Assembly: GCA_040900375.1 (NCBI GenBank)
Contig: JBBDZC010000003.1
Coordinates: forward strand, 64,586-128,585
Source of the DNA: Candidatus Anderseniibacteriota bacterium
Lineage (GTDB): Bacteria > Patescibacteriota > Andersenbacteria > UBA10190
Direction of reading: 5' to 3'
Length of the DNA: 64,000 bases
Below are positions 49,327 to 52,845 of the stretch, in pieces. Below the pieces are notes generated by a model that was not told the DNA's origin, searched no databases, and saw only the letters and a program-made list of their open reading frames with translations. The stretch's first letter is position 1, and every line of letters begins with the position of its first letter. The position numbers and the translations under genes were made by a program.

Positions 49327-50064
49327 CTACAGCTTCATTTTTTTAAAAATCCGTTCGGGAATCGCCGTAATGACGAGCATGATCCCCCACCAAAACCATG
49401 GCACATAGACCACCTCTCGCCGACTCCCAATTGCCCGATGAATTGCTTTCCCGACCACGTGAGGCTTAACCCATAACAATCCCTTCTTAAATTCCGCCGT
49501 CATGGGGCTGTCGACAAAGCCTGGTTTAATAGTAAGCACATGGACATTGGCTTTCGCTAAACGATTGCGCAAGCCCTGAAGAAATATAGTGAGCGCTCCT
49601 TTAGCCGTGCCATACACATAGTTACTTTGTCGCCCACGATCACCGGCCACCGAAGAAATCACCGCGATTGTCCCTGTTCGGGCTGGCTCAAAATGATTAG
49701 CAACCAGCGTGAGCAAGGAGACAACACTTAAAAAATTAGTGGCCAGTTCCCTTTCTGTTACCTCCCAGCTAGCTTCTGCCATCTTTTGCTTGGGCAACGT
49801 CCCATGAGCAATAAGGACAGTATCTATTCCCCCTAGTTGCTGCTCTGCCTGGCGAATGAGTTCTTTGTGTTCCTCAAAATTATTAAGATCAGCGGTAGCC
49901 GTAGCAACATACTGGGCGCCCCGCACACGTAAATCATTAGCCACTGCCTGCAATCGGTCTGCCGTCCGGTCGACTAGAAAAAAGGCGGCCCCTTCCGCGG
50001 CAAAGAGGCGAGCGGCCGCTGAAGCGATTGCAGAGGCGGCTCCAGTAATCAATATTCTGCGCAT
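49327..50064 (-). CDS. dprE2: decaprenylphospho-2'-keto-ribose reductase-like SDR (DprE2 ortholog)
   Basis: 245 aa. 'IAVISSVAGDRGRQSNYVYGTAKGALTIFLQGL' parallels Mtb DprE2 '[32 protein letters not shown]'. The C-terminus 'VVYVPWFWWGIMLVITAIPERIFKKMKL' parallels '[28 protein letters not shown]'. Confidence 0.75.
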   Translation of the reverse strand: MRRILITGAASAIASAAARLFAAEGAAFFLVDRTADRLQAVANDLRVRGAQYVATATADLNNFEEHKELIRQAEQQLGGIDTVLIAHGTLPKQKMAEASWEVTERELATNFLSVVSLLTLVANHFEPARTGTIAVISSVAGDRGRQSNYVYGTAKGALTIFLQGLRNRLAKANVHVLTIKPGFVDSPMTAEFKKGLLWVKPHVVGKAIHRAIGSRREVVYVPWFWWGIMLVITAIPERIFKKMKL

Positions 50065-50093
50065 GTCTTTAAAACTACCGTAATCGTGACCGT

Positions 50094-51404
50094 CTACTCA
50101 AGCGGCCTTACCCGCCGCCACCAAGAGGAAGAAAAATTGGGGTCGACATGCCGACTAAATTCCTGCCACCGCGGATAGTACGTGCAAAAGCTTTTGGTTG
50201 ACATGCGCGCATCTTTAGCCGGGTAGACCGCCCCACTGGCATTCCCTACTAACTGATCAAATTTTTCCAGAAGCTTAAGAGTTCGTATCCCCCGGAAGGG
50301 AAAATCAAGCGCCAGCACAATCCCCGGTCGCGGAAAAGATAGTAACCCCGGAGAATTACTCTCGCCAAACGTCTTGAGCGAGGCTAAATATGAACTTAAG
50401 CCCTTGGCAGCCATTACTTGCAGCATAGTTTGCATAACCGCGGTGGCCGCCTCATGGGGCACCACACACTGGTACTGCAAAAAGCCGCGTTTGCCATATA
50501 ACCGATTCCAATGCTGCAAGCTATCGAGAGGGAAAAAATAGGGCTGGTAGTGCGCTAAGTATTTCTTTTTGCGTCCTTGACGCTGTTGATAGAGCCAGTT
50601 AAACACCTTGAGGCTGTAGTCGTTGAGGAGCCAGTTTGGCATGATGAGGGGAATACTTATTGCCCTCCCCCGCGCCGCGTGCTTAGCCACTTTGTGCTGG
50701 CTGTGGTTTCCTAGCATTAGGACTCCCCGGCTCCGTACATGTCTGCGCCAAACCACTCCATCAAACTGCCCGATTAGATATTCATGACTATCCTGATACT
50801 CACCTATTAAAGAGAAAAATTCCTCTAGGTTACTAAAAGGAATAGTAGTGACTTCGAGGTAGGGAGTTGGCAAGGGCTTAAGTTGTATCGCCGCCCACGT
50901 GATCAAGCCGGTCAGGCCTAGACCCCCAATTGTCGCCGCAAAGAGAGGCGCATTACTGGTAGGGGCGCAGAGATAGCGTTGGCCATCAGAGCGTAGCAAT
51001 TCAAAGCGGAGAACATGGCCCCCAAAACTACCAGCCCGCCGATGGTTTTTACCATGGATATCATTAGCAATCGCGCCCCCGAGCGTCACAAATTGCGTGC
51101 CCGGTACGACGGGCAAAAACCAGCCGCGGGGCACGAAAGTATCAAGGATATCTTTCAATGTCACTCCCGCTTCCCCACACAACACGCCAGTGGCCTCGTC
51201 AAAAGATATAAAGCGGTCAAGCGATGAAGTATCAAGAAGGTAACCGTTTTCATTTAAGCAACTGTCTCCCTGACTCCTTCCGAGACCATAAGGCAGGAGG
51301 CTTCCCTGCAGCAGGGGGCGCAAATCATTCGGTCGCCAATGTAAGACCCGAGCTTTCTGGTGAGTAGCCACCGGGTATCGGCCCCAGGATTCATGCCGCG
51401 CCAT
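50094..51404 (-). CDS. dprE1: FAD-dependent decaprenylphosphoryl-beta-D-ribose 2'-oxidase-like (DprE1 ortholog)
   Basis: 436 aa. 'GLGRSQGD' is the FAD-binding PCMH motif. '[35 protein letters not shown]' parallels Mtb DprE1 '[35 protein letters not shown]'. '[10 protein letters not shown]' parallels 'GFLQYQFVIP'. Confidence 0.8.
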   Translation of the reverse strand: [436 protein letters not shown]

Positions 51405-52845
51405 AGTAATAACTTGCTCCTAAAACAACCAGCATGGCACAAGCCGCCACGAGGTAACTGACAGTATCGCGCATAGCAAAGATCAAGGGATCATCTTCCA
51501 GTACTCCGCGGTGGGCTAAAAACCATATACGACTAATCCAATAAAGCTGTAGCGGCACTAAAAGCCATAACAAAATCGGCGTTTGGTAGAGAGAATAGAT
51601 TTCCTCGCTGCTGATATAGAGGGCTAAAATAACAGCCGCCAAGTAGCCGCTGGCGATGCCGATTTGTGCCAGAGGGATACTGTCGCTTACAGTATATCCC
51701 CGGCCATGAGCATTGCTGGCTGTCGCCTCGAGGTGCTTGAGTTCGCTAAATCGCTTCACAACTGCCAGGCTCAAAAACAAGAACATACCAAAAGCTGTCA
51801 GCCATGATGAAACCAGCACGAGGGTGGCCGCCGCACCCGCGTACAAGCGGATCGTGTAGAGCACAGCGAGCAGAAAGACATCGACTAAAATAATCTGTTT
51901 CAGTAAAAAAGAATACAATAACGTCAACCCGAGATAGAGTGTCAGCAACCAGACAAACGATGCGGGCAACAAGGTGCTCACACCAAAACTGGCAAGTAGC
52001 AAGAGAGGCACAGCGAAAAATCCTATACTTAAAGACAAGGTCCCCGCGGCAAAGGGGCGGTATCGCTTGCGGTGGTGCCGGCGATCCGCCTCTAAATCCA
52101 GGAGATCATTGAGAATGTAGACACTCGACGAAGCCAGACAAAAAGCGAGAAAGGCCAAGAGTGCATTATAGACTAGCGTAAGCTCTGTTACTTTGTGCGC
52201 CGCCATCAGCGGTACAAAAATAAGGATATTCTTTGGCCACTGGTGCCATCGCAGTGCCTGCAGCCATCTAGTCACACGCTTGCTTCTGTTCCCAAAGATT
52301 GAGGTCACATAGGTGGCCTGCCGGGCTCTGGTAATAAGCCAGGGATTACTGCTCACCACAATTCCCTCACCTGCCTTCGCCCAAACTGCTAAATCAGATG
52401 GGGCATTACCTGCGTAGGCAAATTTCCGCTCGCCAAATTTTTTGACCAAGGCTTGAGCTTTATGGCTTCCTTTAAAATTCAGGGTGGCTGATGAGGCAAC
52501 CACCCCCGTAAAGATCCCGAGGTGTCGCGCCACTTGCTGGGCAACCACGACCGAAGACGCCGTGGTCAGAAAAAGTGGCCGCCGGGTGGCGTGTTGTTGC
52601 CGCAAGTATGTCAATAAATCTGTGTTATAGGGCAAATGCTTAACCGACAACGCTACCCGTGTCGCCACCTGGTGTTTACAGTAGGCCCGACCCTTACAAA
52701 GCCACCATCCAAGGGCACCGAGGTAAAGCGGATTGCGTTTAAGCAAGGCAACAACTAGCTCAATAAAAGTATCAGTCCGGACTAGTGTACCATCCATATC
52801 AACACACAATGGCAGGCCAGCAGCAAAAGAATACTTGGGCTTCAT
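51391..52845 (-). CDS. HAD-phosphatase domain fused to UbiA-family polyprenyl-phosphate phosphoribosyltransferase (Rv3806c-like)
   Basis: Start set at Met 52845 ('MKPKYSFAAGLPLCVDMDGTLV'). The N-terminal ~200 aa carry HAD motifs I 'DMDGT' and IV 'GNAPSD'. The C-terminal ~290 aa are polytopic with the UbiA 'NDLLDLEADRRH' Asp-rich motif. Confidence 0.7.
   Translation of the reverse strand: MKPKYSFAAGLPLCVDMDGTLVRTDTFIELVVALLKRNPLYLGALGWWLCKGRAYCKHQVATRVALSVKHLPYNTDLLTYLRQQHATRRPLFLTTASSVVVAQQVARHLGIFTGVVASSATLNFKGSHKAQALVKKFGERKFAYAGNAPSDLAVWAKAGEGIVVSSNPWLITRARQATYVTSIFGNRSKRVTRWLQALRWHQWPKNILIFVPLMAAHKVTELTLVYNALLAFLAFCLASSSVYILNDLLDLEADRRHHRKRYRPFAAGTLSLSIGFFAVPLLLLASFGVSTLLPASFVWLLTLYLGLTLLYSFLLKQIILVDVFLLAVLYTIRLYAGAAATLVLVSSWLTAFGMFLFLSLAVVKRFSELKHLEATASNAHGRGYTVSDSIPLAQIGIASGYLAAVILALYISSEEIYSLYQTPILLWLLVPLQLYWISRIWFLAHRGVLEDDPLIFAMRDTVSYLVAACAMLVVLGASYYYGAA

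Follow-up and report, generated by a model that had tools for sequence, protein, structure and literature searches.

Can a bacterium of the candidate phyla radiation (CPR) make a lipid-linked D-arabinofuranose (Araf) donor, and which enzymes would use it? The question is raised by three adjacent genes in a stretch of 64,000 nucleotides from a Candidatus Andersenbacteria metagenome-assembled genome (MAG; assembly GCA_040900375.1, contig JBBDZC010000003.1), which is referred to below as the window. One gene encodes a fusion of a haloacid dehalogenase (HAD) superfamily phosphatase domain to a UbiA-family membrane domain, and the other two encode a DprE1-like oxidase dependent on flavin adenine dinucleotide (FAD) and a DprE2-like short-chain dehydrogenase/reductase (SDR) (Table 1). 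Judging from the homology of the three products, we consider it likely that this cassette makes polyprenyl-phosphate-linked D-Araf. It corresponds, in a CPR bacterium, to the version of the pentofuranose system of Kelly et al. (Kelly, Duong, Nothof, Lowary & Whitfield, 2024) in which the bifunctional PRP::PPPRS enzyme, a phosphoribose phosphatase (PRP) joined to a polyprenyl phosphoribose synthase (PPPRS), is accompanied by a DprE1/DprE2 pair.

An earlier, sequence-only reading of this DNA had located the three open reading frames (ORFs) and named their products as a DprE1/DprE2 pair and an Rv3806c-like UbiA transferase fused to a HAD phosphatase. All three were found where it had placed them, on the minus strand, with every quoted motif in their translations, and database comparison agreed with each assignment. 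Pfam recognises HAD and UbiA domains in the fusion, whose sole sequence match in the PDB is the Rv3806c phosphoribosyltransferase (8j8j, E 5.6e-25), and the top PDB matches of the other two proteins are DprE1 and DprE2, with catalytic residues intact. The proposal of a decaprenylphosphoryl-arabinose (DPA)-type pathway, with the HAD domain replacing the PAP2 enzyme Rv3807c, is supported by homology, active sites, fold, topology and synteny. The host had also been said not to look like a mycolate actinobacterium, and the MAG indeed belongs to Ca. Andersenbacteria (CPR/Patescibacteria).

The cassette and its predicted chemistry

The fusion ORF has a longer, TTG-initiated version that extends to 52929. 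The ATG start yields a 484-aa form identical to an NCBI protein, and homologues begin at the same point. There is a 14-nt overlap between the fusion and DprE1-like genes and a 29-nt gap between the DprE1-like and DprE2-like genes, which is consistent with a single operon; promoter and terminator scans around the cassette gave results at chance level only.

The fusion matches the curated NCBIfam model NF006088/PRK08238 over its full length, with a score of 585.5 bits (cutoff 351) and residues 8-478 aligned to profile positions 9-480 of 482. DPPRS models of the same collection score 120-142 bits against the fusion, compared with at most 42 bits for models of quinone and other prenyltransferases, so that the class proposed for the UbiA domain by the sequence-only reading held. 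An alignment of 26 fusion proteins showed D16, D18, T95, K129 and D151 of the HAD domain to be invariant, and G19, T20 and N147 nearly so. The catalytic Asp pair is thus present within motif I, which reads D16-x-D18-G-T20. Within the UbiA domain, N246, D247, D250, D254, R255, R365 and E368 are invariant in the same alignment. The N-terminal domain is predicted to be a polyprenyl-P-ribose-5-phosphate 5'-phosphatase (the PRP domain), and the C-terminal domain a phosphoribosyl pyrophosphate (PRPP):polyprenyl-phosphate 5-phosphoribosyltransferase (PPPRS, Rv3806c-like).

The AlphaFold model of the fusion (predicted local distance difference test, pLDDT, 92.1; predicted template modelling score 0.87) agrees with both assignments. 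Its N-terminal domain adopts a Rossmann-plus-cap fold like that of SerB-type HAD-IB phosphatases, and the top Foldseek match of its membrane domain is again 8j8j (target TM-score 0.81), with archaeal UbiA enzymes at about 0.7. Over the nine helices of the model, 15 Lys and Arg residues lie on the N-in side and one on the opposite side, which would place the NDxxDxxxD and KRxxE loops in the cytoplasm together with the HAD domain; the HAD domain and the NDxxD loop are set apart by two transmembrane (TM) helices. This topology bears out the expectation that the HAD domain faces the same side as the UbiA active site, and in the model both sites would lie as a coupled transfer and dephosphorylation requires.

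The DprE1-like protein is predicted to be a polyprenyl-P-ribofuranose 2'-oxidase. It has the two-domain architecture of FAD_binding_4-type oxidases, and its residues 36-432 are colinear with residues 58-465 of M. smegmatis and M. tuberculosis DprE1 (E 2e-67 in the PDB); the second-best PDB family, cytokinin dehydrogenase, follows at E 5e-08. A comparison with other FAD oxidases, proposed in the sequence-only reading, likewise favoured DprE1, whose NCBIfam model scored 331 bits against 32 for sugar-lactone oxidase and 22 for GlcD, the next families. We aligned 50 homologues, the syntenic copies from loci L001-L082; H117 and K119 do not vary among them, and K397 occurs in 49, the remaining one having a gap there. 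We take the three residues to be H132, K134 and K418 of M. tuberculosis DprE1. Of the two sites that the sequence-only reading had singled out in this protein, the catalytic Lys (K397) is therefore kept, whereas the Cys at the benzothiazinone site (Cys387) is replaced by Ala365 (codon 50310-50312). Ala occupies this position in 44 of the 50 homologues, the window copy included, and this mostly Ala-bearing, non-actinobacterial family is accordingly expected to be naturally insensitive to benzothiazinones and should resist that drug class.

The DprE2-like protein is predicted to be a polyprenyl-P-2-keto-erythro-pentofuranose reductase. Its top PDB match is DprE2 (21gq_C, E 1.9e-22), in an alignment that extends through the unusual C-terminal tail, and it passes the cutoff of the NCBIfam model PRK07102 (323 bits, cutoff 267). 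Among 37 homologues the SDR residues N110, S138, Y151 and K155 are invariant, and the tail itself, hydrophobic and spanning P236..F240, is likewise conserved.

Taken together, homology suggests the following route. The UbiA domain would transfer phosphoribose from PRPP to yield polyprenyl-P-ribose-5-P, from which the fused, cytoplasmic HAD domain would remove the 5'-phosphate, with Asp16 as nucleophile, to give polyprenyl-P-beta-D-ribofuranose. The DprE1-like flavoenzyme may then oxidise C2', and the DprE2-like SDR, probably membrane-associated via its hydrophobic tail, may reduce the 2'-keto intermediate to the arabino configuration. The later steps are conjectured with less confidence: some transporter would flip the donor across the membrane, and one or more glycosyltransferases of the GT-C fold (GT-Cs) encoded nearby might add Araf, outside the membrane, to a surface polysaccharide or protein.

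The glycan island around the cassette

The whole window is a glycan-biosynthesis island, with several GT4 and GT2 enzymes, methyltransferases, nucleoside diphosphate (NDP)-sugar enzymes and a Wzx-type flippase. The sequence-only reading had described a 12-member GT-C array here. Twelve large polytopic membrane proteins do exist, and family evidence for the GT-C type (PMT_2 or YfhO, by Pfam, BLAST or profile) extends to only about eight of them. The proteins at 3326, 8744, 27795 and 46319 gave no such evidence, and the first three were rejected as GT-Cs when profile comparison with the family of the 693-aa protein also gave nothing.

Table 1. Coordinates of the cassette and of other features of the window.
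Feature	Position	Strand	Remarks
HAD::UbiA fusion gene	51391-52845	minus	484 aa from ATG at 52845
N-terminal HAD-superfamily phosphatase domain	52291..52845	minus	~aa 1-185; Pfam HAD PF12710
C-terminal UbiA-family membrane domain	51391..52290	minus	~aa 186-484; nine TM helices
DprE1-like FAD-dependent oxidase gene	50094-51404	minus	436 aa
DprE2-like SDR gene	49327-50064	minus	245 aa
Family I inorganic pyrophosphatase	48754..49293	plus	Convergent with DprE2-like gene; Pfam Pyrophosphatase, E 8e-57
Two polytopic proteins, 631 aa and 798 aa	44449..48715	plus	Other cassette flank; 631-aa protein weakly YfhO-like at C-terminus
693-aa ArnT/PMT-like GT-C	52898..54979	minus	C-terminal beta-sandwich resembling a carbohydrate-binding module (CBM)
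897-aa polytopic protein	54985..57678	minus	~13 TM; N-terminal CBM-like module; probable GT-C
NDP-sugar epimerase/dehydratase, GT4, GtrB-like GT2	57774..60922	minus	Pfam
Polytopic protein	31304		YfhO match above Pfam cutoff
Polytopic proteins	34205 and 37015		PMT_2 matches above cutoff
Polytopic protein	38552		Weak PMT_2 match
Polytopic proteins	41924 and 44449		Weak YfhO C-terminal matches; mutually paralogous
Unannotated 108-aa ORF	29240-29566	plus	Four predicted TM; no Pfam match; just after 27795-29237
Wzx-type flippase	20582-21892		Other flippase candidate, away from cassette

The 693-aa protein next to the fusion is a GT-C by fold (model pLDDT 89.9) and is a candidate user of a polyprenyl-P-sugar donor. 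It carries a conserved D40-E41 after the first TM helix and shares 28% full-length identity with the protein at 34205. Beyond it, residues 35-159 of the 897-aa protein match the C-terminal module of the 693-aa family (hhalign probability 99.5%, E 6.5e-23); its GT-C evidence is weak and consists of an archaeo_STT3 match and a PMT_2 match in the ortholog from L083. On the other flank, the N-terminus of the 798-aa protein weakly resembles the CBM-like module (70.7% probability).

Five Andersenbacteria-type relatives keep the fusion beside DprE1-like and DprE2-like genes. The arrangement in L081 is a 698-aa GT-C, the cassette, a pyrophosphatase, a 781-aa protein and a 631-like protein, and in L083 it is 891-aa and 713-aa proteins, a 329-aa gene, the cassette and an asparagine synthase. 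In L087 an 893-aa protein precedes the cassette; in L088 an 891-aa protein does so and 795-, 632- and 750-aa proteins follow; L082 has a lone cassette with a YfhO-like gene about 5 kb off. Orthologs of the 897-aa protein adjoin or lie near the cassette in L083, L087 and L088, and this family is its most constant upstream neighbour in the Andersenbacteria lineage. Orthologs of the 631-aa and 798-aa proteins flank the cassette in L081 (61% and 53% identity), and the 795- and 632-aa membrane proteins of L088 were matched to the 798/631 pair by size only. Two of these relatives also have a Trp_repressor-family gene (PF01371) between the DprE1-like and DprE2-like genes, at 5780-6208 in L081 and 8574-8915 in L088, which is absent in the window.

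The pyrophosphatase occupies the same position in L081 (7054-7581, 70% identity) and is not found there in L083 or L088. It might clear the pyrophosphate released by the PPPRS reaction, or it might be a housekeeping or coincidental neighbour. The gene string at 57774..60922 is kept in order in L083, L084, L087 and L088, and its GtrB-like GT2 (59948-60922), a candidate polyprenyl-P-hexose synthase, could supply the adjacent GT-Cs with a second donor. At 6421-7520 (minus), a 240-aa GT2 is followed by a small DUF2304 membrane protein, an arrangement like that of GacI/GacJ, the synthase of undecaprenyl-P-GlcNAc and the protein that activates it in the streptococcal group A carbohydrate pathway. 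With GtrB-like and GacI/GacJ-like genes both present, several lipid-linked donors likely feed the GT-Cs of the island.

The remaining observations on the island concern possible modifications and acceptors. Two glutamine-dependent asparagine-synthase paralogues, at 10834-12732 (plus) and 40218-42122 (minus), probably act as sugar or uronic-acid amidotransferases rather than making asparagine; an ortholog follows the cassette in L083. A 143-aa protein at 36541-36972 (minus) consists of one N-terminal hydrophobic helix and a charged ARRERRDGQRREDVAGLKRELEMYF segment reminiscent of pseudopilins, and no canonical prepilin cleavage motif was found in it. Its ortholog in L085 (14733-15116, 49% identity), another Andersenbacteria genome, lies inside the GT-C array, and it could be a pilin-like acceptor for glycosylation.

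The product, its users and the host

A number of observations weigh against a pathway that makes an Araf donor and passes it to the GT-Cs of the island. The DprE1-like protein's 330.9 bits do not reach the equivalog cutoff of 500 in NCBIfam NF053785, nor do the DprE2-like protein's 158 bits reach the cutoff of 250 in NF053786, so that the oxidase and reductase count as sister-subfamily members and not as strict equivalogs of the mycobacterial enzymes. Near the cassette there is no recognisable GtrA, SMR or MATE flippase. Structural ranking of the 693-aa protein puts ArnT and PMT above AftA, AftB, AftD and EmbA, and the island has two polyprenyl-P-sugar synthases of the GtrB/GacI type. Finally, L084 (GCA_016178385.1, 10001-15951), a related Andersenbacteria genome, holds the same island with just the cassette and the pyrophosphatase missing: there the genes orthologous to those at 44449 and 46319 come directly after the ortholog of the 693-aa gene, and all four flanking membrane proteins are present. 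On the last three points taken together, the donor's link to a transferase is unproven, and the sequence-only claim that the donor feeds the adjacent GT-Cs or the whole array is weaker than it had been made out to be.

The missing flippase is not strong evidence against the pathway, given that the flippase of the Pseudomonas aeruginosa arabinosylation system was reported as dispensable or redundant (bioRxiv 10.1101/2020.04.19.049825). GtrA or EamA/SMR-like genes accompany the cassette in other phyla. Within the window, the 108-aa ORF is the only small multi-TM candidate for a GtrA/SMR-like flippase besides the DUF2304 gene.

A serious rival explanation, to which we would give not quite an even chance, accepts the Araf donor and disputes its users. 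It holds that the flanking 693-, 897-, 798- and 631-aa proteins use polyprenyl-P-hexose or -HexNAc made by the GtrB/GacI-like GT2s, and that Araf is used elsewhere, possibly by a promiscuous enzyme. The ArnT/PMT-like fold of the 693-aa protein and the GtrB-like GT2 in the same conserved gene string fit this explanation, as does the persistence of all four flanking orthologs at the L084 site from which the cassette is absent. L085 similarly has 693-type and 631-type orthologs and no cassette in the 16.4 kb read, the cassette of L082 stands apart from the island, and the 693-type gene is absent next to the cassette in L087 and L088. On the other hand, the cassette occupies the same place between GT-C genes in the window, L081, L083 and L088, and L084 and L085 may carry a cassette elsewhere in their genomes. 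Donor specificity is moreover unreadable from the GT-C fold, and a characterised GT136 enzyme is itself promiscuous between ribofuranose (Ribf) and xylofuranose (Xylf) donors (PMC11127046).

By this comparison the cassette behaves as a variable presence/absence module at a fixed site, and all four membrane proteins around it can be kept locally in its absence. Either L084 has the cassette elsewhere in its genome, or the flanking enzymes are independent of the Araf donor, and for this reason adjacency alone does not allow the flanking GT-Cs to be named arabinosyltransferases. The GT-Cs of the window had no tblastn match in 80 reference loci from other phyla, and thus do not accompany the cassette there as conserved partners.

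The distribution of the fusion is very wide. A word-indexed protein search returned more than 5,600 matches at E <=1e-20, with named sources that include Verrucomicrobia, Myxococcaceae, Burkholderiales, Nitrospira and KSB1. An exhaustive search of 1.84 billion cluster representatives (50% identity clusters) gave 3,399 proteins at E <=1e-30, the top 150 of which all align over both the HAD and UbiA domains. Among species representatives of GTDB, the fusion matched at least 600 stretches, at least 580 of them confirmed. Gene neighbourhoods were counted in the best 80 of these at least 600 loci, among whose genera are Stenotrophomonas, Xanthomonas, Dyella, Cupriavidus, Acidovorax, Acidipila and Citreicoccus. 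In 52 of the 80 the fusion has a DprE1-like gene within a few kb, and in 49 it has both DprE1-like and DprE2-like genes. The order is mostly fusion, E1 and E2 directly downstream, with a few cases upstream or on the opposite strand.

Full-length fusions were also found on 81 plasmids. One R. etli plasmid locus has the fusion, GtrA, an FAD oxidase, an SDR, two hypothetical proteins and a GT87 GT-C, all generically named. A phage collection yielded one partial match, to the UbiA domain; the matches did not include the phage that Kelly et al. name. Closer to the host, two Ca. Peribacteria MAGs (L060 and L067) and a Ca. Saccharibacteria MAG (L064) have the HAD::UbiA fusion, with no DprE1-like or DprE2-like genes in the stretches read (at most 10 kb per side, less at contig ends), which suggests donors of ribofuranose or another pentofuranose there.

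An end product other than Araf, with the redox pair acting elsewhere or the pathway stopping at polyprenyl-P-ribofuranose or the 2-keto sugar, appears unlikely to us. It would account for the scores below the equivalog cutoffs. About one third of fusion loci have no DprE1/E2 neighbour, so stand-alone Ribf donors exist, and C. youngae O2 obtains Xylf through an SDR epimerase. DprE1 is nevertheless by far the closest family of the oxidase, the catalytic His, Lys and Lys and the DprE2-specific C-terminal tail are kept, and the tight order of overlapping or nearly abutting genes argues that the pair acts on the product of the fusion. In the literature, too, DprE1/E2 homologues go with candidate systems for glycans that contain Araf, and a GalE-like SDR with those for glycans that contain Xylf (PMC11127046). 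A polyprenyl-P-D-Araf donor remains the preferred product.

The CPR host, too, can be questioned. If the contig were mis-binned, the module would be just another proteobacterial or acidobacterial copy; the assignment rests on the MAG label, the closest named homologues of the fusion come from other phyla at about 50% identity, and the window has no rRNA or tRNA gene. We regard this as quite improbable. The window proteins tested correspond to NCBI entries MEX19971xx, all from one 191.6-kb contig labelled Candidatus Andersenbacteria (the two flanking GT-Cs have locus tags WEA04_00545/00550), and all but one are singletons at 90% identity. The best labelled relatives of the pyrophosphatase are from four other Andersenbacteria MAGs (63-69% identity). 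The 693-aa protein family has 242 members, and those with taxonomic labels are nearly all Andersenbacteria, a Rifle genome (GCA_001817145.1) included; twelve consecutive genes are syntenic with that genome. Base composition is even over the 64 kb. Assignment of the window to a CPR bacterium of the Andersenbacteria is thus highly probable.

The weakest alternative, an ordinary role for the UbiA domain in aromatic or lipid prenylation (of the quinone, chlorophyll or archaeal-lipid type) with unrelated redox neighbours, can draw on generic public names and is hardly credible in view of the DPPRS scores, the Rv3806c match in both sequence and fold, the retained phosphoribosyltransferase-specific NDxxDxxxD and R..E residues and the synteny with DprE1/E2, and quinone or aromatic prenyltransferase identity was rejected on these grounds.

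What is new in this locus is modest: the Andersenbacteria host, an ArnT/PMT-like GT-C that is restricted to the lineage and carries a shared CBM-like module, and a cassette polymorphic for presence or absence within a conserved island. We tentatively suggest, as a possibility somewhat more doubtful than not, that Andersenbacteria decorate their surface with D-Araf through a lineage-restricted, expanded set of GT-Cs sharing the CBM-like module, and that the cassette drives surface diversity between strains. If so, D-Araf could form an arabinan-like polymer or occur as side chains, carried by a cell-wall polysaccharide, an S-layer protein or a pilin-like protein, and the diversity could be antigenic or concern phage receptors or host recognition.

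The envelope glycobiology of CPR bacteria is essentially uncharacterised, and a recent Saccharibacteria study called glycosylation in CPR unexplored. We found no literature linking CPR bacteria to D-Araf, the specific surface sugar that the window predicts for Andersenbacteria. The related genomes offer a natural comparison with and without the cassette. There is also value for annotation, in that specific functions can be proposed for genes publicly named only 'UbiA family prenyltransferase' or '4-hydroxybenzoate polyprenyltransferase' (fusion-type proteins), 'FAD-binding oxidoreductase' and 'SDR family oxidoreductase'.

Comparison with known pentofuranose systems

The DPA pathway of mycobacteria and corynebacteria (in mycobacteria Rv3806c, Rv3807c, Rv3790, Rv3791, Rv3789 and Emb/Aft) has a homologous transferase, oxidase and reductase. 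The catalytic residues are kept, the predicted chemistry is the same up to polyprenyl-P-Araf, and GT-C enzymes are the consumers there and the predicted ones here. The differences lie around this core. The phosphatase is the PAP2 enzyme Rv3807c in mycobacteria and a fused HAD domain here, and Rv3807c has been stated to be unrelated to HAD PRPs (PMC11127046); neither a PAP2 (Rv3807c-type) protein nor GtrA (Rv3789-like) was matched among the scanned ORFs of the window. Mycobacterial DprE1 has Cys387 where the present protein has Ala, and both redox enzymes here stay under the equivalog cutoffs. The neighbouring GT-C is nearer to ArnT/PMT than to Emb/Aft, and the carrier is probably other than decaprenyl-P.

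Outside the Actinobacteria, group IV pilin arabinosylation in P. aeruginosa (PsPA7_6245-6251, TfpW) similarly employs an Rv3806c/DprE1/DprE2 set that feeds a D-Araf GT-C. That system has a separate Rv3807c-like phosphatase (6245), a GtrA-like gene (6247) and a pilin acceptor (bioRxiv 10.1101/2020.04.19.049825), whereas here the phosphatase is fused, GtrA is absent, and no pilin or TfpW homologue was identified. The rhizobial noeCHOP/noeCNHOP operon, also from a non-actinobacterium, encodes homologues of the same biosynthetic steps for Nod-factor arabinosylation, with a lipo-chitooligosaccharide acceptor and the transferase NoeP; in IRBG74 the phosphatase candidate NoeN is encoded separately (PMC5080398). 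The window differs from this operon and from the R. etli locus in having neither a GtrA gene nor a nod context.

The remaining comparison is with C. youngae O1, whose ORF15 is a biochemically characterised PRP::PPPRS fusion with an N-terminal HAD domain and a C-terminal UbiA domain, the same architecture as in the Andersenbacteria fusion (Kelly, Duong, Nothof, Lowary & Whitfield, 2024, PNAS; PMC11127046). ORF15 uses PRPP to make farnesyl-P-ribofuranose, observed at m/z 435, a D18A variant builds up the 5-phosphate intermediate, observed at m/z 513, and activity needs N247, D248, D251 and D255 (PMC11127046). By published positions, the mutated residues D18, N247, D248, D251, D255, R366 and E369 are all kept in the Andersenbacteria protein, which has the same nucleophile Asp at the position matching D18 and UbiA-domain residues numbered one off from those of ORF15.

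Differences from this system are found in the surroundings. No MATE (ORF14-like) or other dedicated flippase is seen beside the Andersenbacteria cassette. Of the labelled proteins in the small family that includes the adjacent GT-C, almost all come from Andersenbacteria, and the organism itself belongs to the CPR and has an island in which as many as 12 polytopic membrane proteins are encoded. Some pentofuranose systems do have multiple GT-Cs or epimerases (PMC11127046). The overall scheme is shared, and runs from PRPP to polyprenyl-P-Ribf, through an optional epimerase, to a GT-C outside the membrane. The view that a fused HAD domain lies outside the known pathway, expressed in the sequence-only reading, did not hold, and the HAD::UbiA fusion was rejected as a new architecture: with ORF15 characterised, NF006088 curated and members in their thousands, both the fused phosphatase design and its pairing with DprE1/E2 were already published in 2024 and are very common.

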